DNA from: a virus
Taxonomy: Duplodnaviria > Caudoviricetes
IMG/VR virus record: IMGVR_UViG_3300020419_001132
Strand: one strand, 5' to 3'
Length of the DNA stretch: 64,000 nucleotides
Shown piece after piece: positions 1-16,450 of the stretch. Positions within the stretch are counted from its first letter, which is position 1. Every line of letters begins with the position of its first letter. The translations under genes were made by a program, and so were the position numbers. The notes under the pieces are model-generated. The model saw nothing but the letters and a program-made list of their open reading frames with translations, was not told where the DNA came from and made no database searches.

Positions 1-2284
1 CAATCCAAGTTCTGTCATCTGCAGGACCCCATCCTGGATCTAAACTACAGAATGATCCGCCTGTTGGCCTTTGGAGAATTAATGATGTTCCTGTTGGAGA
101 TAGTACTCCTGACAATCCTTCTATAGTACAGTTTCTCAATCCTGTAATGTCTCTTAAGTAAAACATATCTTCTAGTTGTGAACCATTTGTTTGGTTTACA
201 TAATATCTAGCAGACTGTACAGTTGCATAATTTCCAGGGTAGCGTAAGTCGTATCTAATTCCTCTAATAAATTGATTTACATCAGCTTCTATTCTTGCAT
301 CTGTAAACACATACTCTGGAGAAGTGCTTTTAATGTAAGCTACTGCTTCTGCTTGTAAAAATTTTGTATTAACTCTTAGTATCTCACTTGCTCTAATTCT
401 AGCAATTTCACTGGTTAATGTATTTGTTCCTGTTATTGATGGCTGTGTTGATCCACTTAAAATTTTATAACTAAGATACTCTGTAATATCTGCTACTAAA
501 CTTCCAAATATAGCTGTTAAGTCACCTGTACTTGCAGATTGTGTTTTATCTTGTGCTACTGTATTACCTGTAGTTACTGTTATATCTTGATTTAAAAACA
601 AATCGTTTATAATAGTTGTAAATCTAGTTAAGTAAGAAAATGTTGTTGAAGTATCTCCTGTATATTCAGTTACAGGACTATTTGCAACAACCGTCACAGA
701 ACGCAGTTCGTCGCCCATTACCACCGTGTATCTAGGTACAACAATAGGACAAGTTTCTATATACCTACCTGTAGATACGTTAACCTTACATGGTCCTGTA
801 ATATTATCTTCAACGTATTGACATGCAAACCTAATAGTTTTGAAAGGATATCTCATATCAATACCTCTTACTATTCCGCCAGTTGTGCTATAGTCGTCGA
901 CTCCTGTTGGAGATACATATACTACTGTAACTTCTGTTGTAAATAAATCTCTATAGTATAAATCTGGATCAGTAGTCAATTCATTTCTTATAGATAACAC
1001 TTGATTTGTTGTTCCTATTGGAACATTGGTAGGACCCATGCTACTTCCATCAACCAACTTATCATATGTTAAGATGTCTCCAGGTGCGTTTAGACCAAAA
1101 TTTCCTGTAGTCATTGCTAGTATAGACCACCATGGATATCCGCTACCGTTTCCAGGAAAATTAATTGTTGATGAAGTATGCGGTTGTGTACACTCGTACA
1201 ATATACCATAATATGTTACAACTTCACCCTTTGAGTAACTTATAGAATTATAATTCCAGTAATTTGCAAATTTATCTCCTGGAACTATAAGTTCCCATTT
1301 AGTTGTATCTGTATAATCAGTTAAAACAGCATCTGTACTATCGTTTTCTCGCTTGATTGTAACTAGAGCTTTATATAATTCACCGCCTCTTCTTACAAGG
1401 TCACCTGGTGCATAATCGCTTTCAATATTCCAATCACCTCTAAAATTATAAGAATAAAGCATTTTTATAAAATACACTACACTATCGAACCCTGTATTAG
1501 TTGGTTCTATTCCTCTAATAGGATTAGTTACATAGTATAGATCTCCACCGTACCTTACTATATCACCTGTTGCATAATCTGTTGCTCCGCTATATTCTTG
1601 TACATCGTTGAATCCAGGTAATTCTATGTCGTATAAATTTTGGTCAAAATTTGCAGTTGTAATATGTGTTGTCTTGACTCTAAAGATGGAACCGCCAAAT
1701 TTGACTAAATCATTTTTTCTGTAAGTTGTAGCTGTTGTCCAGTTACCAGCAAAATAAATTCCATCATGAAATACTTGCCAACTTGCAATATCGTCTTCTA
1801 AGTATGTTTGCGAAGTATGGGCTGTAATACACTTGTAAAGTATTCCATTATATTTTACAATAGCACCTGGGCCGTATCCTATAGCAGTTGTCCAGTCTGT
1901 TTGAAACTCAGTTCCTTGTGCAATAATAGTCCAGTCAGTTGCGTTTGCTTGAAAAGTTGTAGATAAATGCCCTAGGTTACAAAAGTATACAGTACCATCA
2001 AAGGTTACAATATCGCCTTCTTGATACTGTGTAGCTGTGACCCATGATCCAATCCATCTTCTGCCGTCTGTCTGTAGAACCCATTTGGGCTGTGGTACCG
2101 GAGGACTACTACCAGGAACTGTAGCTTTTAAATCAGTGTTGAAGTCTGCACTAGATGTATGTGTAATTAAACACACATAAGTTTTACCACCTACGTTAAC
2201 AACATCATCACGATTATAAGCATTACCGTTTGACCAAACGCCTTTCCAGTTATACTTAAATCGTTCTAGTTTAAACTCTGACAT
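1..2284 (-). CDS. Large virion/tail protein with repeated Trp-containing carbohydrate-binding-like (CBM5/12-type) modules; runs off the left edge
   Basis: Not in the ORF track because it has no stop in the window. ATG at 2284 with AAGGAG RBS at 2291-2296. Reads MSEFKLERFKYNWKGVWSNGNAYNRDDVVNVGGKTYVC..., with recurring W-x(3-4)-Y-x(2)-GD/DxVxY/FxG units. Confidence 0.8.
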   Translation of the reverse strand, partial: MSEFKLERFKYNWKGVWSNGNAYNRDDVVNVGGKTYVCLITHTSSADFNTDLKATVPGSSPPVPQPKWVLQTDGRRWIGSWVTATQYQEGDIVTFDGTVYFCNLGHLSTTFQANATDWTIIAQGTEFQTDWTTAIGYGPGAIVKYNGILYKCITAHTSQTYLEDDIASWQVFHDGIYFAGNWTTATTYRKNDLVKFGGSIFRVKTTHITTANFDQNLYDIELPGFNDVQEYSGATDYATGDIVRYGGDLYYVTNPIRGIEPTNTGFDSVVYFIKMLYSYNFRGDWNIESDYAPGDLVRRGGELYKALVTIKRENDSTDAVLTDYTDTTKWELIVPGDKFANYWNYNSISYSKGEVVTYYGILYECTQPHTSSTINFPGNGSGYPWWSILAMTTGNFGLNAPGDILTYDKLVDGSSMGPTNVPIGTTNQVLSIRNELTTDPDLYYRDLFTTEVTVVYVSPTGVDDYSTTGGIVRGIDMRYPFKTIRFACQYVEDNITGPCKVNVSTGRYIETCPIVVPRYTVVMGDELRSVTVVANSPVTEYTGDTSTTFSYLTRFTTIINDLFLNQDITVTTGNTVAQDKTQSASTGDLTAIFGSLVADITEYLSYKILSGSTQPSITGTNTLTSEIARIRASEILRVNTKFLQAEAVAYIKSTSPEYVFTDARIEADVNQFIRGIRYDLRYPGNYATVQSARYYVNQTNGSQLEDMFYLRDITGLRNCTIEGLSGVLSPTGTSLILQRPTGGSFCSLDPGWGPADDRTWI

Positions 2285-3001: not shown

Positions 3002-6000
3002 TTATCCTGCTATCAAAGCCATTTCTATTGCTAATTCTTTTGCTTGTCCAAAGTTAATTCCGCCTGCACTACCTGCAACACTTGTCCAACTTGTTCCGTC
3101 ATATAATTCAACTCTTGTATCATCAGTATTATATCTTATCATTCCTGTTGCATTGGCTCCTCTAGAGCCTGTATCTCCTACAGGTAAAACAACTCCTAAA
3201 GTTCCTTGAAATTGCACATATCCTGTGCCTGTATTTTGGAAAGTAGTTAAACTATCTGTCACCGTATTTGTTATAGTTCCGCCACTAATACCAAAATTTT
3301 CAAATTTTACCTGGCCTGTGCCATTAGCAGAAAACTGAAGATCTGTATCTGTAGTAGTAGTACTTATCACATTTCCATTAATATTAATATCGTCTACTTG
3401 TAGCTGTGGTACTTCAAACTTGGTGCTATCTATAGTTCCAACTACTGAGCCACCTACATAAAATCTTATAATATTATCATTAGCGCCTGGTGTAAGCTCT
3501 GGAGTAATCTTAGTATTACCGTCTAGGTCCTGTAAACCTGTTAAGTTATACCAATTAGATCCATCGTAGCCTTCAAATTTATTTAAATCTGTATTATATC
3601 TAACTTGTCCTGCTCCTGCACTATTGTCTCTCTGTGCAGTAGTTCCTTTTGCTAGTGTTACAGAACCTGTGCCATTTACTATAATACTCTCTCCAGCGGG
3701 AGACAAAGTAATAGTAGTATCAGAACTTATTGTACTACCGTTAATGGATAAATCTTCTACAACAACACTACCTGAACCAGATGCTCTCAGGTCTAAGTCG
3801 CTGTTAGAAGTTGTCGTTGTAATGTAGTTGTCTTTAATTAAAATATCAGTTGTAGCAAATTCAATACCAGTAATTGTACTAGATGTTTGGAAATTGTTTG
3901 CAGTAATAGTTCCGTTAATTTGCAAATCTTTAGTTATGAGGACATCGTTTGAGGGAACTCCAATAACACCCGTACCACTTGCTTTTAATTCTAAAGGAGA
4001 ATTACTAGCAGTTGTTGTAATAAAGTTACCTGATATTAGAATATCTTCAAGTTGAACATTGGCGTTGGTTGATAGTGTTCCGTTTACAGTGGCGTTACCG
4101 TTAACAGTTGTGTTTCCTGTCTGTGTAATAGAACCATTAATTGTTGCGTTACCATTTATATTTACTGCTTGAAATGTTGATGTTCCATTAACAATTAGAT
4201 CATTTGTTATTTCTAATGTGTTATTTGGTACAGTAACTTTGCCTGTTCCATTAGCAGATAATTCTAAATTTGCATTTGAATTTGTAGTTGTAATTCTATT
4301 TGTGTTAATATTAATATCGTCAACTTGAATTTCGTCTATGTGTAAATTATTCCATCTTAATGCAGGATCTCCTAAATTATATGTGCTATTGATATTAGGA
4401 ATCAAAGGAGAATTTATCCTTGCAATAATAGCAATGTCTACAGAAGAAGTATCACCTAATTGTATGTCACCGCCAATGGTTACGTTACCTGTAACATCTA
4501 AAGATCCTTGAATTTGTACATTGTCTTGCAAGGTAATTTGGCCTGATGCGGCATCAAGTTGTAAGTCTCCAGCTGTAGTCGATAGTGTATTTCCAGTTAA
4601 TCTTAAATTTCCTGTATCAATTTTGGATCCAGATATTTCTGTTGTGTTAACACCATCCGTAAATATAGCTCCTGCTGACAGATCAATGTTTAATGTGTTA
4701 CCTGCAAAGTTTACAGCACCTGTTTCTTGGTTGACATGAAACAAATCTCCTACTCTAAAGTCTCCTTTATGGTCTACACTACTGAACCTTATCTTTGCAT
4801 CATTAGTTGTAATTACTTCATTACCTTGTACTGTTAGTGTAGGATCATTAGTGACTTGCTCATTAGAGCCTACGTATGCAACATTATGTCCTATTGCATA
4901 AACAAGAACACCCGGTCCGTCTCCTACTAATCCTTGCTCACCGTATACAGAGGCAGATGCAATAGTTCTTATTTCTGCGCCAAAGTCTTTAACATCAACA
5001 TTTAATATAGTAGTTGCTGTTGCTCCGCTTCCATTTGAAATACTCTGCGGCGATGTATCAAATCCTATTAGATTAGTATTCTTGCCATCAACAACTAGAA
5101 TATCTCCGTCTACGCTTTCAGCAGTTACTGAAACTACAGTTGAAGCATCTCTAGATGTGAATGTAACAGTATTTCCTGCGGCAAATGTTCCTGATACTCC
5201 GCCTAATCTAATCCTAGTTTTTCCGTCAGATTTTTTTCCTATACCACTGTCAAATGCATATATGCTTCTTTTTGCAAAATATGTAAAACAGTTTAACCAT
5301 TCTACCCTTGCACCATTAGTACAACTTAAAGCATTTACTCCTGGTGTAATAAAAGTTACAGAATGGAATAACATACTAGCTTCTTTGGAAGCACTTTCTG
5401 CGTAAGATCCGTCAACCAATGCACCTTTACCTGCATCACCACTAAAGTAACCTCTTGGATCACTAGCTGATACAGTTCTGCCTTTAGTTATTACAGTAAT
5501 GTTTCTAATATATGGTGAACGACTAGTTACTGTATAACCTGTTGCAAACCTAAATGCATAACCGTTGTTAGGATAAGTTTTATTTGTACCACTACAACTA
5601 AAAACAAATCCTTTTAGCATAATCGCCGTTCCGGATGTAGGAACAGTACCACTATAAGTTATAGTTAATTCTCCTGTAGCATTATTGTATGTTGCTCCTG
5701 TTGCACTAACTTCGCTTGAAAAAGAAGTATCATTAAGTACACCGCCACTTACATATGCATGTGCCTGTGGTGCTGTTGCTAAAGTAACTACAACACTTCC
5801 GGTTGATCCTCCTCCTGATGTTACAGTAAATCTATCATAACCACTGTAAAAATCCATGATGGTTACATCTTCAACTGTGCTTTCTCCGTTTAATAAAAAT
5901 GCATCTTTTGTTTCTGTAGCACTTGTAGGTTTGATTGTAACACTTCTTAAACTTGCACCTCTAACTGTTACACCAACCGGTACAGTCATTGGAAAAGCTT

Positions 6001-6805
6001 CTGTATATGTACCAGCGTTTATGTAAATCATATCTCCACTTACGGCAACGCTTAGTGCTTTTGTAATTGAACCATATGGATCTTGTGGATGTATACCTAT
6101 GTTTGAATCAGCACCATTTTCGGCTACGTAAATTGTATTTCCTGGTGCTTGTGTAATATCAGGTATACCTGATAATGCTAACGAACTAGTAGTTACGCTA
6201 TCAGCATTAAAGTTTTTTACATATGCATTTCTCCATCTTTTTGATACTGAACCTATGTCAAAAGATGTAGTTGCGTTAGGCGTAAGATTACTAGCAATAT
6301 CTGCATTAAAAGTGATAGTGTCTGTATCAGCATCTCCTAATACAATGTCGCCATCTGCAGATATATTTCCTGTAGCATGTATATTACCTGTTACGTTTAG
6401 GTTGGAATTAATATTAATGGCGCCTACGCCATTTGGTCTAAAGTTTAAATTAGCATTACTATCTATTGTGCTAATTGTATCTCCGTCAAACTTTAGTCCG
6501 TCAACAATAGCTTTTTTTTGATACACTACATTATCTGCTGTGCCTAAAACTAGTTCATTTTTTGATGTTTGAATTGTGTTACCGTTTATGTTGACATCTG
6601 CTATATCAACTCCGCTTGTAACTACTAAATTTGTTGTTCTTGTGGTCCCGCTTACATCTAGTGCATATTGTGGATTTGAGGTGTTGATGCCAATACGTTT
6701 GTTATTGACGTCCAAGTAAAGTAAGTCCGTATCAAAAGCTAAATCAATCCCGTTACGGATTAAGTTAGGTTTTAAGAGCGGACCAGATATTCGACCAACT
6801 GCCAT
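3002..6805 (-). CDS. Tail fibre/spike-like protein (1267 aa) with a parallel beta-helix (pectin-lyase-like) domain
   Basis: IYVAENGADSN..G..P..SITKAL beta-helix start, repeated TT.SNS.LEL.A.GTG units, two GT/GD-T..R motifs; RBS AAGGAG upstream. Confidence 0.8.
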   Translation of the reverse strand: MAVGRISGPLLKPNLIRNGIDLAFDTDLLYLDVNNKRIGINTSNPQYALDVSGTTRTTNLVVTSGVDIADVNINGNTIQTSKNELVLGTADNVVYQKKAIVDGLKFDGDTISTIDSNANLNFRPNGVGAININSNLNVTGNIHATGNISADGDIVLGDADTDTITFNADIASNLTPNATTSFDIGSVSKRWRNAYVKNFNADSVTTSSLALSGIPDITQAPGNTIYVAENGADSNIGIHPQDPYGSITKALSVAVSGDMIYINAGTYTEAFPMTVPVGVTVRGASLRSVTIKPTSATETKDAFLLNGESTVEDVTIMDFYSGYDRFTVTSGGGSTGSVVVTLATAPQAHAYVSGGVLNDTSFSSEVSATGATYNNATGELTITYSGTVPTSGTAIMLKGFVFSCSGTNKTYPNNGYAFRFATGYTVTSRSPYIRNITVITKGRTVSASDPRGYFSGDAGKGALVDGSYAESASKEASMLFHSVTFITPGVNALSCTNGARVEWLNCFTYFAKRSIYAFDSGIGKKSDGKTRIRLGGVSGTFAAGNTVTFTSRDASTVVSVTAESVDGDILVVDGKNTNLIGFDTSPQSISNGSGATATTILNVDVKDFGAEIRTIASASVYGEQGLVGDGPGVLVYAIGHNVAYVGSNEQVTNDPTLTVQGNEVITTNDAKIRFSSVDHKGDFRVGDLFHVNQETGAVNFAGNTLNIDLSAGAIFTDGVNTTEISGSKIDTGNLRLTGNTLSTTAGDLQLDAASGQITLQDNVQIQGSLDVTGNVTIGGDIQLGDTSSVDIAIIARINSPLIPNINSTYNLGDPALRWNNLHIDEIQVDDININTNRITTTNSNANLELSANGTGKVTVPNNTLEITNDLIVNGTSTFQAVNINGNATINGSITQTGNTTVNGNATVNGTLSTNANVQLEDILISGNFITTTASNSPLELKASGTGVIGVPSNDVLITKDLQINGTITANNFQTSSTITGIEFATTDILIKDNYITTTTSNSDLDLRASGSGSVVVEDLSINGSTISSDTTITLSPAGESIIVNGTGSVTLAKGTTAQRDNSAGAGQVRYNTDLNKFEGYDGSNWYNLTGLQDLDGNTKITPELTPGANDNIIRFYVGGSVVGTIDSTKFEVPQLQVDDININGNVISTTTTDTDLQFSANGTGQVKFENFGISGGTITNTVTDSLTTFQNTGTGYVQFQGTLGVVLPVGDTGSRGANATGMIRYNTDDTRVELYDGTSWTSVAGSAGGINFGQAKELAIEMALIAG

Positions 6806-6920
6806 CTCTTCTCCTTAAGCGGGGATCCTGTCCCTCCAGTCTGATTTTCAGCTAATGCTCTTTGCCGACTGACCACAGTTTGGACTGCCAGTAATTGGTC
6901 AATTATCATGGCATTAACAT
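6806..6920 (-). ncRNA. Putative structured 5' leader (cis-regulatory RNA) of the 1267-aa fibre gene
   Basis: GC-rich segment between a late promoter and the RBS. Hand-paired stems CAGUC/GACUG, CUGA-AAA-UCAG and GGGA-CAGGA-UCCC. Confidence 0.5.
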
Positions 6921-6928
6921 TATTTATC
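6921..6928 (-). promoter_or_regulatory. T4-type late promoter (GATAAATA)
   Basis: Matches the TATAAATA-like gp55 consensus in an intergenic position. Confidence 0.65.
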
Positions 6929-6950
6929 GTTTTATGTGATATAGGGTCTA

Positions 6951-9900
6951 TTACCCAAAGATAAGCGTCTGTTCGAAGTTGATATCTTCAGCATCATTTA
7001 GTGGAACTGTTTCAATAAAACCTGCTGAATTTTCCCATACAGAACCAGTATAAACTTCCATTCTTGAAAGCGTTGTGTTAAATCTCAACTGTCCTTGTGT
7101 TGATGGATTACCTAGGTTCTCTGGACGCTGAGCTGTTGTCCCTACAGGAATTACAATACCTGTACTACCGCCAAACTGTGAATAACCCTCTCCTGTAGAT
7201 GCAAAAGAAATATTTCCGTCTGATGCTGTGTTGATAAATTTGTTATCCTCAAATTTCATCACAGTACCTACAAAAATATTGCCGTTTCCGTTTGGTTTAA
7301 GTTCTAAGTCTGAGTTTGAAACTACTGTGGTAATTGTGTTCCCGTTAACAAGTGTTTCTCCATCTGTTTGTAAGCCGTTGTGACTGAATTTAGTTGCATC
7401 TATTGTTCCAGAAGATACGCTATTAATAGTAATATCAATTTGATCTGATGTAGGATGTACTAATAGTTTTGTAGTTCTGTTATCAGAATATAATCCATTA
7501 AAGCCTTCCCAGCCTGTAGAATATGCTTCGAAAATACTATCTGTTGTGTTATACCTAAATTGTCCTGCTGTTGCTGTGCCCCTTTCTGCTGTAGTACCAC
7601 GTGGAATACGTATGCTTTTATTTGCAGATGATACATCAACATGTGGTGCTGAAAATGTAATATTCTCAGTTGGATATAAAGGTGCATTAGTCAAATTGGT
7701 GCCATCAAATTTTAATTTTTGTGCTATAACTGATTTGCCTGGATATGGTCTAAGTTCTAAATTGCTGTTTGAGTTGCTGGTTTCAATAACATTTTGATAA
7801 AGTTGCAGATCACCAGTAGTAAAGTCAGCAGTAACTCTAGTAAAATTACTTGCTCCAATCTTAAGTGTTCCGTTAACTGTTGCATTGTTATTGAAGTTTG
7901 TATTATTAGAAAATAATATATTACCTGTTCCACTTGCACGTAATTCTAAATCTGCATTGGAATCTGTAGTTCTAATATTGTTCATATCAAATGTAATTGA
8001 ATCAAATGATATTGGTCCGTTAATAGACATTGTTGTTGCAGTTAAATCATTAAATATATAATTTTGATTAACAATAATATCGCCTGTAGTAGTAATACCT
8101 TGTGTACTAAAATTATTAAAAGTCATGGTGCCAGTAGGTGGTGTAGACATTTCCTTAACTTCTAATGTATTGCCAGGAACTATAACTTTGCCTGATCCGT
8201 TTGCAACTAATTCTAAATCAGCATTTGAAACCACAGTCGAAATTTTTGTGTCTACCATGTTTATATCAGCTACATTAATTTGAGAAAAATATCCTTCTTT
8301 CCATTTTAATGCATTTGTTCCTAGGTCGTGTGTTCCACTTACTGAAGGATTTAAATCACTACCAATATTTGCTCCTAATACAAGTGTGTTACCTATTTGT
8401 TCTCCTATGTAAGCAAATCCACCACCAATGGAAATTCCTTGATCTAAAACAAAATTCTGCGTCATGTTAACATTATCTAGAAACTTTATCATATTCATGT
8501 TAGAATAGCTGTTTAAATTTAGATCCAAGTTTACTGTTTCTAATGTTTGTCCTTTGAGTCTAAAATCTCCAACTTCTATTCTGTCAGGATATAATTCTGT
8601 AGAATTTCCACCGGTTGTCAATATCAAAGAATTTAAATTGGCAAATTCTGCTGAGGATAAATTTAGGCTTGTTGTTCCGTCTTCTTGATTGACGTGAAAA
8701 ACATCTCCTACTCTAAAATTACCTGAATGATCTTGTGAACTAAAAAATACTTTAGCAGAATTAGCCTTTACTACTTCCTGAGATTGTATTGCTCTGCTAG
8801 GGTCGTTGTCGACAAATTTTCCTGCGCCTATATATGCAAGATTATGATTAATTGCATAAATTAAAACATCTGCACCATCACCTTTTATGCCTGTGTTTCC
8901 ATACACACATGCACTTGCAATACTTCTTAATTCTGCTCCATACTTTGTTGTGCTTCCGTCTGATGATAAATGTCCTGTACTGCCATTTTTACAATGTATG
9001 CCTATATTTGCAAAATATGTAAAGCAATTTAACCATTCAACACGCACACCGTTGGTGCATGTTAATGCATCTACTCCTGGTGTTATAAATGTTACTGAAT
9101 GGAACAACATACTTGCTTCTTCACTGGTATTAAGAACTGCCGCACCGTCTACCAATGCACCTCTACCAGCATCTCCACTTGCAAAGCCTCTTGGATCACT
9201 TGCACTTGTAGTTGTTCCTTGTGTTATCACTGTAATATTTTGTATATACGGACTTCTTGTTGTTATTGTAGAGTTGGGTGCAAATCTAAAAGCATAACCA
9301 GTATCTCCTGAACTATCATAGTAAAAATCTTTGACTGTTAAATTTTGTACTGTAGTTTCACCTGTTAAATGAAATACATCATTACTCTGATATGCACTTT
9401 CTGGTCTAACAGTTGTGTTACGCATGTCTTCACCTGTAATTGTAACATTACTTGGAACAACAAGTGGAGTCACCTCTTCATAACCTCCTGCAAATACTCT
9501 AATAGTAACTGGTCCAGCAGTACTAGCATCTGCGGCATCTAAAGCACGTTTTATTGTTTTGAAAGGCCCATACGGTGTTGTTCCCGAATTGGTGTCGTTT
9601 CCATTATGCTGTGCTACGTAAAATGTATTTCCAACATCTAATCCTATATTCTGAATTGTATTTCCAGGAGGAGATGTATCGTAAAACATCATGTATCCAC
9701 CCGGTTTAGTTGTTTGGTTTGTCCTACCCCCTTCTGACATTGCAAATATATGATTGCCGTCTATTCTAACTCTAGCACCAAAATTTTCTGAGAAAAAATA
9801 TGAACTTATACGGGTACTTGATGTACCAGTGCCTGCATAAGTCTGTAGTCCTGATTGATACCATGCGGCTGGACTTCTACTTAATAAATCACCTGTACTG

Positions 9901-11807
9901 GCATCATATACATAAAAGGTTCCTGTACCAGAGTCTTGTTCAAACTTATCTGCGGGAGTTTCTATTGTCTGAAGTGAACCACCCTGACCAAAACTGGTTG
10001 CTCCTATTACGATTTTACTATCAGTTGCGTCTACCGAAGCACCAAAACGATCATATTTAGCATAACTTTCATATCCTGATGCGTATGCATTACTAGGTGT
10101 GAGAAAACTTCTTATATAGTTTCCTGATAAATCAAATTGATATACCTTTCCTGATTTTATACCTTGACTGCCACTACCCCTATAGCTAGCCGATGAAATA
10201 ATAATGTAACTGTCAGTTAAACATACACCATTGCTGAATCTAGCAGTTGCTGATCCTTCACTGAGAGCATAATCGCCACCCCATCTATTGGCTTGACTTC
10301 CACTGCCGCCTGATTCATATTTTGGTATTGTAACACTAGGAGTTTGTGTACTTGGACTTGTGTTCATACTAGAAAGTTCATATATGTAAACTTCTTGCAA
10401 ATTAGTTGGCGAAGCTATGGCAACTTTTGTTTTATTCATATCAATGCCTATGCCGAAATGATTACTACCGGTTGGTATTGTAGGTGTAAGAAAATCATAA
10501 CGTTGTCCATCTGAAAGCCTATAAACGTAAGCCGCTCCTCTATTACTAGAACCAACATCTGAATAGTGTGCTCCTATGCCTACATAGTGAGTCGAAGCAC
10601 CATCTGGAGTCATACATAGACCGGCTCCAAAGTAATTGTTGCTACCAGAATATGTAGGGTCAGTAAATGAATGTGCTAGTGATCCTGTACTTAAATCATA
10701 AACATCTACAGAGCCGTTGGAATCAAAATTACCAATTGCAATATAAGAGTCGTTCATAGCTAACTGGGTTCCCCACTCTTCGGAAGTACCAGCAGTAGAA
10801 TCGTCAAATGTGTATACTAATTGATCGTTTGATCTATTGAAAACATAACATTTATTATCACCAGCACTCCAGCTAGTAAATCTAAACACAGTAAAAGCAT
10901 AATAACTTGTGCTGACCGCCATGTCTCCCATTATCCAGTGATTTGAAGGAAATGTTGTTACAAAGTTTGAAACATTTATATCTACTTCTGCATCAAATTC
11001 TGCTTGATATTCAGTTGCATTTGATGGTTGTGTTGCAAATGTTCTTACTTTTCCACTTTCGTTAACAATCATCTTGTCAGCATATAAAATAGGAGGTCCA
11101 TTGTTAGCAAATACGCTTTGTGCAATAGTGCTGTTTAATTGAATGCTTTGACTTGTTACTAGTGCATCTGTTGTTAAACTTACAGCATGTCCATCTTTAT
11201 ACATAAATCCTGCTGAACCTAAATCATATGTGTCTGTGACATCAGGTAAAAGATTGTTGTTTATATCTGCACCTATAGAAACATTATCTTCTCCGCCACT
11301 ACCTAGTGTAATGTTTCCATCTGCTGTAATATTTCCTGTAGCAGTAATGTTTCCGTCTACGTTTGTGTTAGCAAAAAATTCAGTTGTTCCTGTGCCTGCA
11401 GGATCTAAAACGATGTTGTTATTATTATCTGTACTAATATTATTATCTCTAGCAGTTATTACAATATTATTAGAAGAATCTTTTGTACCAAATCCAGTCA
11501 TGCGTATTGCATTACCTGCGTTAAGATTTATATCACCACTTGATATTGCTATGCTTTCAGAACTTATTGTAAAGTTGCCAAATGTTGCAGAGGAACCTGC
11601 GATTAATTTAGATCCTAAACTTATTTGTGATGGAATATATAAGTCAGCTAGAGGAGTACCGTTGTAGTTTACACTTAGCTTTTTGTTAGCTGAATCAATA
11701 AAAAGAATAGGATCGTCAGTTAACACATTTTTAAAAGAAAGGCCAACGCCCTGTCTTTCTAAATTTGCATTAAGTAATGGACCCGATATTCTACCTACTT
11801 GTGACAC
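6951..11807 (-). CDS. Tail fibre/spike-like protein (1618 aa), paralog of 3002-6805, with an inserted FG-GAP/beta-propeller-like region
   Basis: Shares the N-terminus GRISGPLL..NL.R.G and the beta-helix core (SRSPYI.NITVIT.G...EASMLFHSVTFITPGV...TNG.RVEWLNCFTYFA). About aa 255-715 carry FG/WG..V...IAIG-type blades. GTG start with RBS AAGGAG. Confidence 0.8.
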   Translation of the reverse strand: MSQVGRISGPLLNANLERQGVGLSFKNVLTDDPILFIDSANKKLSVNYNGTPLADLYIPSQISLGSKLIAGSSATFGNFTISSESIAISSGDINLNAGNAIRMTGFGTKDSSNNIVITARDNNISTDNNNNIVLDPAGTGTTEFFANTNVDGNITATGNITADGNITLGSGGEDNVSIGADINNNLLPDVTDTYDLGSAGFMYKDGHAVSLTTDALVTSQSIQLNSTIAQSVFANNGPPILYADKMIVNESGKVRTFATQPSNATEYQAEFDAEVDINVSNFVTTFPSNHWIMGDMAVSTSYYAFTVFRFTSWSAGDNKCYVFNRSNDQLVYTFDDSTAGTSEEWGTQLAMNDSYIAIGNFDSNGSVDVYDLSTGSLAHSFTDPTYSGSNNYFGAGLCMTPDGASTHYVGIGAHYSDVGSSNRGAAYVYRLSDGQRYDFLTPTIPTGSNHFGIGIDMNKTKVAIASPTNLQEVYIYELSSMNTSPSTQTPSVTIPKYESGGSGSQANRWGGDYALSEGSATARFSNGVCLTDSYIIISSASYRGSGSQGIKSGKVYQFDLSGNYIRSFLTPSNAYASGYESYAKYDRFGASVDATDSKIVIGATSFGQGGSLQTIETPADKFEQDSGTGTFYVYDASTGDLLSRSPAAWYQSGLQTYAGTGTSSTRISSYFFSENFGARVRIDGNHIFAMSEGGRTNQTTKPGGYMMFYDTSPPGNTIQNIGLDVGNTFYVAQHNGNDTNSGTTPYGPFKTIKRALDAADASTAGPVTIRVFAGGYEEVTPLVVPSNVTITGEDMRNTTVRPESAYQSNDVFHLTGETTVQNLTVKDFYYDSSGDTGYAFRFAPNSTITTRSPYIQNITVITQGTTTSASDPRGFASGDAGRGALVDGAAVLNTSEEASMLFHSVTFITPGVDALTCTNGVRVEWLNCFTYFANIGIHCKNGSTGHLSSDGSTTKYGAELRSIASACVYGNTGIKGDGADVLIYAINHNLAYIGAGKFVDNDPSRAIQSQEVVKANSAKVFFSSQDHSGNFRVGDVFHVNQEDGTTSLNLSSAEFANLNSLILTTGGNSTELYPDRIEVGDFRLKGQTLETVNLDLNLNSYSNMNMIKFLDNVNMTQNFVLDQGISIGGGFAYIGEQIGNTLVLGANIGSDLNPSVSGTHDLGTNALKWKEGYFSQINVADINMVDTKISTVVSNADLELVANGSGKVIVPGNTLEVKEMSTPPTGTMTFNNFSTQGITTTGDIIVNQNYIFNDLTATTMSINGPISFDSITFDMNNIRTTDSNADLELRASGTGNILFSNNTNFNNNATVNGTLKIGASNFTRVTADFTTGDLQLYQNVIETSNSNSNLELRPYPGKSVIAQKLKFDGTNLTNAPLYPTENITFSAPHVDVSSANKSIRIPRGTTAERGTATAGQFRYNTTDSIFEAYSTGWEGFNGLYSDNRTTKLLVHPTSDQIDITINSVSSGTIDATKFSHNGLQTDGETLVNGNTITTVVSNSDLELKPNGNGNIFVGTVMKFEDNKFINTASDGNISFASTGEGYSQFGGSTGIVIPVGTTAQRPENLGNPSTQGQLRFNTTLSRMEVYTGSVWENSAGFIETVPLNDAEDINFEQTLIFG

Positions 11808-15268: not shown

Positions 15269-16450
15269 TTAGCTGAAGCTTACGTTAGCATTAGTAATAT
15301 CTACTAATCCTAAGTAATCTGCCGCGTTACCAAGCGATGAAGCTGTGTTAGATAGCTCAACATATCCGTATCTAGTCATAAATGATACGACTGGCTCGAA
15401 TGATGATGGATCTAATACAACGCCACTTGACATCAATGGAATGTATGGGCAGTAAAAAGCGGCCGCATCTGATTCACTTGAACCTTTGTAACCAACTAAT
15501 ACGCCTGTACCGTCGCCTGCATATGAGTCAACATACACTCTCATTGCGTTGTTTAATGTACCAACGAATTTAGTGTTTGTTGGAGCTTCAAATGCACCTT
15601 CAGTTGTTCTTGCGAACGCTGAAGTTGTAGCACTTTGTAAGATTGTTAACGCAAATGGGCTAACAACTGCAAAGTTTCCTGCTCCTCTACGTGTACGCTG
15701 AGCAATCAAGTTTGATACTCTGTTAATTTGAACAGCGAGTGCCGCATGTTCGTCACCAACAAAAGTAGCAGTACCTGAAACTGCCGCTTGATCATAAGTT
15801 TCAGCGGCTGTACCTGCTAGTGTACGTAGGCTTGTTAGAACCTCTTGGTCAATTTCAGCAGTAATTTCTTGTGCTAAAGCCGCCATAATTTCAGCTTCAA
15901 CATCAATACCGTGCTGTGATTGTGCATCCTGAGCAGATTCAAAAGTCCATCTAGCTGATAGCTTTCTGGTTTTTGCTTCTACAGTTTGCTTGAGGATCTG
16001 AATTGACAGTCTGTTACCAGCCGCCCCTTCAAGTGCCGCAGTAGTATTCGCTTTACCTGCAGTACCGTCTCCAGAATAGGCTTGACCAATTCTGAATGGT
16101 GATAACGCTTCATCACCAGCTGTAACATCGTTAGCTGATCCTGTAGCGTTTTGAGTGTCCGCATAGCGTACTCTCAATGTGTGGATCTGACCCACTGGTC
16201 CAGTCATAGGCTGAACACCAACAATTTCATTTGCAATCACTGTTGGCATTACACGTCTGATAACTGGAAGAATAACTCTATTAAGAGTTGCAACATTACC
16301 GGCAGAAGTCGCACCAGCTGTGGCCGCCTCTTGCAAATACTGCTTAGTATTTTCAAGTGTGGTTGCCATTACGCTTTTCTTTGTGCCTTGTAGGCCTTCA
16401 AGAAGTGCTGTTTTGGTATCCTGCCAGCGACTTTCTAATAGTTCTGACAT
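15269..16450 (-). CDS. gp23: Major capsid protein (T4 gp23-like)
   Basis: Hallmark motifs GVQPMTGPVGQIHTLR, TVEAKTRKLSARWT.E.AQD, EITAEID.E, FYCPYIPL and F.P...FMTRYG. Confidence 0.97.
   Translation of the reverse strand: MSELLESRWQDTKTALLEGLQGTKKSVMATTLENTKQYLQEAATAGATSAGNVATLNRVILPVIRRVMPTVIANEIVGVQPMTGPVGQIHTLRVRYADTQNATGSANDVTAGDEALSPFRIGQAYSGDGTAGKANTTAALEGAAGNRLSIQILKQTVEAKTRKLSARWTFESAQDAQSQHGIDVEAEIMAALAQEITAEIDQEVLTSLRTLAGTAAETYDQAAVSGTATFVGDEHAALAVQINRVSNLIAQRTRRGAGNFAVVSPFALTILQSATTSAFARTTEGAFEAPTNTKFVGTLNNAMRVYVDSYAGDGTGVLVGYKGSSESDAAAFYCPYIPLMSSGVVLDPSSFEPVVSFMTRYGYVELSNTASSLGNAADYLGLVDITNANVSFS

Follow-up and report, generated by a model that had tools for sequence, protein, structure and literature searches.

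Small H-type pseudoknots serve as riboswitch aptamers, as in preQ1-I/II, SAM-II/SAM-V and fluoride; in such small pseudoknot aptamers an A-rich strand is combined with junction nucleotides of very high conservation. Marine phages are known to carry riboswitch-like RNAs, and known riboswitch classes usually spread over several genes of ligand metabolism or transport. Targets of CsrA/RsmA carry a GGA in a hairpin loop plus a GGA in the Shine-Dalgarno sequence (SD). To our knowledge, very few cases of structured translational operators in phage mRNAs are known. The leader of gene 32 of phages T4, T2 and RB69 contains a small pseudoknot located 67 nt upstream of the AUG, which acts as an autogenous translational operator; an unstructured A+U-rich tract with UUAA(A) repeats extends over the ribosome binding site (RBS), and gp32 polymerises there (PMC3014915). 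This pseudoknot is possibly the only viral one used for translational autoregulation (PMC3014915). In the Escherichia coli rpsO (S15) operator, a leader pseudoknot is in equilibrium with a double hairpin and mediates autogenous translational control (PMC3985624).

The leader described here precedes a fibre or baseplate gene of a T4-like phage. It shares with the gene 32 leader its origin in a T4-type phage, its association with a single gene and its conservation among related phages; a putative pseudoknot-type fold near the 5′ end, upstream of the RBS, and the action on translation proposed below would be further common features. The two leaders share no sequence similarity. The fold of the fibre leader is larger (hairpin P1, a possibly knotted core built on helix P2, an optional hairpin P2a and hairpin P3, all described below) and GC-enriched; unlike in gene 32, its helices run to 16-17 nt before the AUG and the constraint continues into the open reading frame. 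In place of the A+U-rich tract there is a GC-rich P3 followed by 7-8 nt, and the gene downstream is a late virion gene and not one for an ssDNA-binding protein. The pairs that would form a gene 32-like 5′ pseudoknot (PK1) are present in 76 of 76 aligned leaders, and the same pairs fit a plain hairpin.

The likeness to the rpsO operator lies in one strand that may form either a pseudoknot (PK1 plus P2) or a predicted UGUGG..CC(n)GCA hairpin, and in a structured element at the ribosome platform side of the SD. The rpsO pseudoknot differs in including the SD/AUG region and in being bound by a ribosomal protein, and the two RNAs are not homologous. Gene 32 and rpsO are the closest known systems in terms of functional resemblance, not of membership.

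Genomic setting and distribution of the leader

The window, i.e. the whole 64,000-nucleotide stretch of DNA that was analysed, originates from an uncultured marine T4-like jumbo phage. It contains a gp23-type capsid gene (15269-16450) and a portal gene (20279-22030), and the nearest cultured relatives by capsid are jumbo phages with approximately 70% identity. The leader is situated on the minus strand within a 145-nt gap that separates two tandem giant paralogous virion genes. The features of this locus are as follows.

3002-6805, minus strand: downstream gene, bearing the leader; 1267 aa, N-terminus MAVGRISGPLLK; baseplate wedge subunit or tail fibre according to PHROGs
6803-6805, minus strand: start codon of the 1267-aa fibre/baseplate gene, from the ORF 3002-6805 and its translation
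6811-6816, minus strand: Shine-Dalgarno sequence AAGGAG; in 76 of 77 leaders, 5-6 nt separate AGGAG from the start codon
6921-6928, minus strand: late promoter box of T4 type, GATAAATA, read directly from the sequence
6951-11807, minus strand: paralog upstream of the leader; 1618 aa, N-terminal motif shared, plain 21-nt late leader

Both paralogs carry the motif ..GRISGPLL near the N-terminus, and both are baseplate-wedge or tail-fibre like in PHROGs. Since the 1618-aa protein shares this motif but its gene has a plain 21-nt leader, it provides an internal control; the claim of an earlier note, made from the DNA letters of the window, that the leader belongs to one fibre paralog only is in agreement with this arrangement. 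By analogy with T4 late promoters, we take the TAAATA box at 6921-6928 to be a working promoter, and the late mRNA should begin a few nucleotides downstream of GATAAATA. The distance from the promoter box to the ATG is 115 nt, with a GC content of 0.46 versus about 0.36 in the flanks. No other TAAATA-to-start leader in the window is as long, and its GC content ranks among the highest (the others have 4-86 nt and GC 0.22-0.50), so the earlier description of a GC-rich leader of about 115 nt, unusual among the late leaders, was accurate. Two genes downstream of the fibre gene, at 2-2284 (minus strand), five carbohydrate-binding CBM_5_12 repeats were identified (Pfam, E 2e-40), which would fit a tail module that binds receptors or glycans.

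Searching with the N-terminus of the protein brought up near-identical contigs, together with one locus of 52% protein identity that retains two blocks of the window leader in its intergenic region. This two-block pattern matched approximately 35 T4-like contigs, and every match was located between TAAATA and a gene beginning ATG..GRISGPLL; the stems around the first block have changed in sequence yet remain complementary. To avoid circularity, the first set of leaders was fetched by protein alignment only. More than 583 stretches encode a relative and 80 of these were retained. The same leader was found in nearly all of the 80 loci with enough upstream DNA, giving 77 distinct leaders, while leaderless paralogs on those contigs have short plain late leaders. 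A second set, fetched with a 15-base core pattern, comprised 69 hits (59 distinct, 43 new). All of its hits with enough downstream DNA precede the same fibre/baseplate gene, and in 57 of the 59 leaders of this set, which was not selected for TAAATA, the model hit is directly preceded by TAAATA. Altogether, 119 distinct leader versions were obtained from IMG/VR contigs, always before the M..GRISGPLL fibre/baseplate gene.

A covariance model, R1, was constructed by segment parsing and folding of the variable parts, with the pairs projected onto a 44-sequence alignment. Searched against the 77 loci (411 kb), R1 gave a single full-length hit per locus; in the 64-kb window it gave one true hit (6803-6920, 98 bits, E 9e-25) and in five large phage contigs, including a complete genome of 357.6 kb, one hit each. 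The window also contains a weak partial match at 24204-24271, minus strand (12 bits, E 0.48), limited to a P1-like hairpin, which directly follows the late box CATAAATA upstream of the gene 22030-24216. Hairpins at the 5′ end may be a wider trait of the late mRNAs of the source phage.

The leader had earlier been matched to no named family, and the database searches gave the same answer. Comparison of window positions 6500-7300 with Rfam 15 (4227 covariance models; cmscan with permissive filters) gave no match at E <= 10, and five loci with other leader subclasses gave none at E <= 5. Neither the leader nor the first 50 residues of the protein matched any of 50,697 cultured phage records in blastn and tblastn searches; distant matches in these records concern later domains of the fibre protein only. 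Five leader-bearing contigs are filed in GTDB as metagenome-assembled genomes (MAGs) of Neomarinimicrobiota, Dehalococcoidia, Chitinophagales and Crocinitomicaceae: L250 (PBPT01000016.1, 335 kb), L253 (PBPT01000082.1, 153 kb), L251, L252 and L254. Because four unrelated phyla and very large contigs are involved, these are most likely jumbo-phage DNA binned into bacterial MAGs. Host assignment from these records, with contigs of up to 335 kb spread over four unrelated phyla, was set aside.

Helices and covariation

Folding of the window sequence alone (6790-6950) gave a minimum free energy of -34.9 kcal/mol, compared with -32.6 ± 3.6 kcal/mol for shuffled sequences (z -0.64; 45 of 200 shuffles were as good). 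As this fold is no better than those of shuffles, stems read from one sequence are insufficient evidence, and the comparative data carry the structure. In the R1 alignment of 76 distinct rows, all 22 modelled pairs show double changes. Pairing was found in 89.5% of cells versus 68.7% after shuffling (22 pairs, first set), and covariation reached 0.459 versus 0.147 for shuffled alignments; none of 500 shuffles was as high and slid controls gave at most 0.142. The result was repeated in the second set (0.455 versus 0.143). Owing to the differing stem lengths, P1, P2 and P3 were not recovered when RNAalifold was applied to plain MAFFT alignments. Conservation upstream of orthologs had been named in the earlier note as a test of its claim: the leader is kept, and the 22 of 22 covarying pairs were recovered with two sets. 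Judged by these compensating changes, the leader is a folded RNA whose helices are maintained before one gene. Its elements, from the 5′ end, are listed below.

6886-6913, minus strand: P1, 5′-proximal hairpin; outer stem UGCCA/UGGCA, inner stem AAUU/AAUU, apical loop GACC at 6900-6897
6872-6885, minus strand: linker J1/2, ending in the near-invariant AAACUGUGGU; UGU at 6877-6875, GGU at 6874-6872
6837-6871, minus strand: helix P2, CAGUC (6871-6867) with GACUG (6841-6837), enclosing GCAAAG, P2a and the A-rich strand
6863-6865, minus strand: GCA, the partner of UGU at 6877-6875 and 3′ strand of PK1
6850-6859, minus strand: P2a, small optional hairpin AGC-AUUA-GCU in the P2 loop, from the segment table and folds
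6822-6834, minus strand: P3, hairpin GGGA-CAGGA-UCCC

The P1 hairpin is predicted in 77 of 77 leaders; all nine of its modelled pairs are changed on both sides among the 76 distinct rows, a result repeated in the second set, and the GACC loop core is nearly invariant. Within the linker, CUGUGGU occurs in 109 of 119 leaders. The five pairs of P2 all show double changes (93.5% of cells paired), with variants such as AACC/GGUU, AGCC/GGCU, AUCC/GGGU and CGCC/GGCG, and mutual information points to a sixth pair, G6866:C6843, across a bulged A (C-G 36, A-U 28, G-U 6, A-C 5). P2a has double changes in 4 of 4 pairs where it is present and is lacking from 28-33 rows; it bears a GNRA loop in many relatives, is missing in compact forms and is sometimes doubled. 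P3 is paired in 100% of cells with double changes at 4 of 4 pairs in both sets, and it is exchangeable between subclasses (GGGA/UCCC, GGCA/UGCC, CCGUG/CACGG). Its position is fixed, with 7-8 nt separating its 3′ end from GGAG in 76 of 77 leaders and 16-17 nt separating it from the start codon in 75 of 77. All leader versions have in common the P1 loop, the linker word and GCAA. One clade (L062, L084, L096, L100, L109 and L124) has an extra hairpin in the P1 loop directly after GACCA, which places GACC at the 5′ side of an enlarged loop; in this clade the N-terminus of the protein is mostly two residues longer (MSA.GR).

The conserved linker word UGU can pair with GCA in the P2 loop. PK1 is paired in 100% of cells of the 76 rows: the variable pair is U-A in 68 and C-G in 8, with no unpaired case, and its neighbour is U-G in 71 and C-G in 5. 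There is no exception among the 119 leaders, and RNAalifold gave the same pairs unprompted. Two structures may account for them. Either PK1 and P2 form an H-type pseudoknot, in which GGU is a 3-nt loop, the stems meet with no nucleotide at the junction and the third loop is A-rich, or, equally compatible with the data, the PK1 pairs are the base of a predicted hairpin UGUGG-UCAG-UC(G)GCA, extended by GG:CC, whose formation would be mutually exclusive with P2. Nearest-neighbour energies favour the P2-excluding hairpin in the compact subclass. The support for PK1 comes from one covarying position, and its eight C-G sequences may represent one lineage or few events.

These results bear on the pairings read earlier from the window. 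All the words quoted in the earlier note are present (two copies of CAGUC, one of GACUG, and GGGA-CAGGA-UCCC ahead of AAGGAG), and its hairpin upstream of the RBS is P3, which covaries (GGCA/UGCC, CCGUG/CACGG). The two CAGUC copies were thought to compete for the single GACUG: the second copy is indeed a strand of P2 and covaries, while the first falls in the non-conserved 3′ end of P1 and linker. Two competitors of the P3 hairpin did not survive the comparison. The word GUCC belongs to the non-conserved 3′ end of P1 or the adjoining linker. CUGU:ACAG is contradicted by covariation: eight leaders have CCGU or CCGC with no matching change in the P3 loop, and GCAA is changed to GCGA instead. The competing pairings that had been proposed are not conserved; mutually exclusive folds are possible elsewhere, namely between P2 and the alternative hairpin and between GGUY words and GACC. 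The conserved GGUY words of the linker, codons 4-5 and codons 8-9 could, by their complementarity, compete for the single GACC loop of P1.

Constraint within the coding region

The conserved unit does not end at the start codon. Two boxes were distinguished in the first codons of the fibre gene.

6789-6799, minus strand: coding box 1, codons 3-6, GUUGGUCGAAU, complementary to the apical part of P1
6770-6784, minus strand: coding box 2, codons 8-12, GGUCCGCUCUUAAAA, held at synonymous sites

In leader-bearing genes Gly4 is GGT in 76 of 76 and Arg5 is CGN in 76 of 76. In box 2, which encodes Gly8-Pro-Leu-Leu-Lys, the preferred codons are GGT (74/76), CCG (65/76), CTC (71/76), TTA (62/76) and AAG (64/75). 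The codons of Ile6 and Ser7 and of later Gly, Leu and Arg residues are free to vary. Among eight leaderless paralogs, Gly is encoded by GGT in five and GGA in three, Arg by AGA in four and CGN in four, and the Leu codons are mixed. Synonymous-site constraint in codons 3-12 is therefore found in leader-bearing genes only and not in leaderless paralogs.

The codon 3-6 box was the best among four candidate partners of the P1 GACC loop. On average 6.4 contiguous pairs can form between them (at least 6 bp in 87 of 115 leaders), and the duplex energy averages -9.2 kcal/mol; in the window, loop and box 1 are complementary over 10 contiguous pairs (-15.9 kcal/mol), compared with -10.5 kcal/mol for the loop and the linker GGUC. 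Matched loop/box combinations gave 6.49 pairs versus 6.22 ± 0.08 for permuted ones, and 5 of 5000 permutations were as high, in a test that ignores relatedness and detects a small effect. The letters involved are nearly invariant, hence true covariation is weak, and we treat the P1-loop/codon pairing as a hypothesis. The SD-AUG spacer and the Pro-Leu-Leu codons show a weak sign of co-adaptation, with a complementary run of 5.09 versus 4.94 ± 0.04 on permutation, again ignoring relatedness, and no effect in the control. Because the permutation tests ignore phylogeny, both the loop/codon and the spacer/codon pairings are given here as hypotheses.

Several other candidate interactions were rejected. 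The Pro-Leu-Leu codons are not favoured as an anti-SD, since the natural codons are no better than random synonymous alternatives (rank 0.13-0.48). A GGUC-like word directly 3′ of P1 reaches 4 bp with the P1 loop in only 25 of 115 leaders, and the covariation between the loop flank and the wobble base of the Arg codon is driven largely by single clades. A sliding-window search of the leader for a partner of box 2 revealed no window that stands out. Pairing of the P1-loop ACC with the linker GGU, in contrast, may occur: it is feasible in 97.7% of cells, with zero double changes and three leaders that break it.

Candidate roles of the leader

A translational operator or riboswitch-like role is the natural reading of the leader, because it lies directly before the RBS and a scan of the leader found no terminator. 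We propose that the leader and the first ~12 codons probably constitute a gene-specific, cis-acting translational operator of one fibre/baseplate gene. This proposal is based on the association with one gene in one copy per genome, the position flush with the late 5′ end, the fixed distance to the RBS, the lack of a terminator, the invariant unpaired letters and the constraint over the initiation region.

In the proposed mechanism, the RNA would begin a few nucleotides before P1 and then form a compact core composed of P2, the UGU/GCA pairing, the A-rich strand and the optional P2a, and P3 would close the fold 16-17 nt before the AUG, near where the 30S subunit must sit. The GACC loop of P1 would pair with GGUCG at codons 4-5, and the SD-AUG spacer may pair with the Pro-Leu-Leu codons, so that the start region would be tied into the fold, limiting initiation. 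The conserved unpaired nucleotides would serve as a recognition surface for a trans-acting factor shifting this balance, more likely a protein (the fibre/baseplate protein itself, a partner in assembly or a host factor) than a metabolite. As an outcome, the dosage of this fibre would be set independently of the leaderless tandem paralog. The control might also run in the other direction: the element could be permissive rather than repressive, which is conceivable because the SD is about half open in nearest-neighbour ensembles.

With respect to protein partners, a CsrA gene was absent among the five phage contigs searched, and a RegA gene was absent among the same number of contigs in a search run without a positive control. 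The P3 loop CAGGA closed by an A-U pair, with the SD AGGAG 15 nt downstream, recalls the CsrA/RsmA layout in the window and most relatives. However, the loop lacks GGA in the CCGUG-AAA-CACGG subclass and reads CAAGA in one relative, and we consider this a resemblance only.

It seems somewhat unlikely that the leader is a constitutive structural element with no regulatory input, in which P1 guards against 5′-end-dependent decay while the core and P3 insulate the RBS or fix a low translation rate, thereby keeping the fibre paralogs in the correct ratio. Such a role would suit the start of P1 within a few nucleotides of the predicted 5′ end, an SD that is not strongly sequestered in ensemble folds, the empty searches of five contigs for a CsrA or RegA partner, and the restriction to one structural gene, the product of which is presumably present in a fixed number per virion. 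However, approximately 30 near-invariant unpaired nucleotides (the GACC loop, AAACUGUGGU and GCAA), kept while the stems are fully turned over, would be superfluous in it, and so would the synonymous-site constraint reaching 36 nt into the ORF. Conserved unpaired letters and codon constraint of this type typically mark a tertiary fold or a recognition surface.

The leader is unlikely to be a true switch, in which the GACC loop toggles between the linker GGUY and the GGUCG of codons 4-5, or P2 alternates with the alternative hairpin. If it were, it would respond to a metabolite of the host or to a protein of phage or host.

Quite unlikely, too, is a new riboswitch class, whose ligand, an ion or small molecule of the infected cell, would bind the pseudoknotted core, so that fibre translation would be gated according to the state of the host. 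As expected of a riboswitch aptamer, the leader is a conserved structured element with covariation, and it has a predicted alternative hairpin that excludes P2. Its compact H-type-pseudoknot-like core resembles the H-type aptamers in the order of stem, short loop, second stem and A-rich strand, in its highly conserved junction nucleotides and in the lack of a terminator; it departs from them in the association with a single structural gene, two further hairpins and the coding extension. The lack of an Rfam match sets it apart from those aptamers and would suit a new class. Instead of several ligand-related gene families, one gene family lies downstream: all distinct leaders with readable downstream DNA precede one structural gene, in a single copy per genome, and this exclusive link makes a metabolite riboswitch less likely. 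Neither a terminator nor a clearly conserved SD-sequestering platform was found; pairing of the SD with codons 9-11 is possible, but not above synonymous alternatives. The RBS-adjacent P3 is, moreover, replaced wholesale between subclasses.

Conservation at the DNA level (a promoter or recombination box at the border of the fibre module) or a small uORF is highly improbable: fibre genes are known to be mosaic, TTGACC in the window resembles a -35 box and a 45-codon ORF is present at 6772-6909, but TTGACC is replaced by GCGACC, AAGACC and similar words in most relatives, and the compensation of 22 of 22 pairs, with G-U pairs valid on the sense strand only, indicates that RNA pairing is selected. 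No sigma-70-like promoter on the minus (sense) strand of the leader passed the scan. The 45-codon ORF (6772-6909, minus strand) begins with ATG and extends across the leader and on into the fibre gene in a different frame; relatives do not conserve it, and it is very probably spurious. A conserved uORF was also rejected, as an ATG is missing from the first 20 nt of 50 of the 119 leaders, and the uORFs of the others vary in length from 1 to 33 codons.

The leader represents a new RNA family, large and well supported, with at least 119 distinct sequences; it is absent from Rfam 15 and from 50,697 cultured phage records and occurs in T4-like jumbo phages that are uncultured and abundant in seas and lakes. 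The conserved unit, a leader together with the first dozen codons, shows with unusual clarity how selection at the RNA level acts on coding sequence. The leader most likely controls a late structural gene, probably one encoding a fibre/baseplate protein, and it offers a testable handle on the dosage of one of two paralogous fibres. Should it prove to be a true switch, the phage would choose in each infection whether, and how much of, the second receptor-binding fibre paralog enters its progeny, which would mean RNA-based control of a host-range phenotype in giant aquatic phages.
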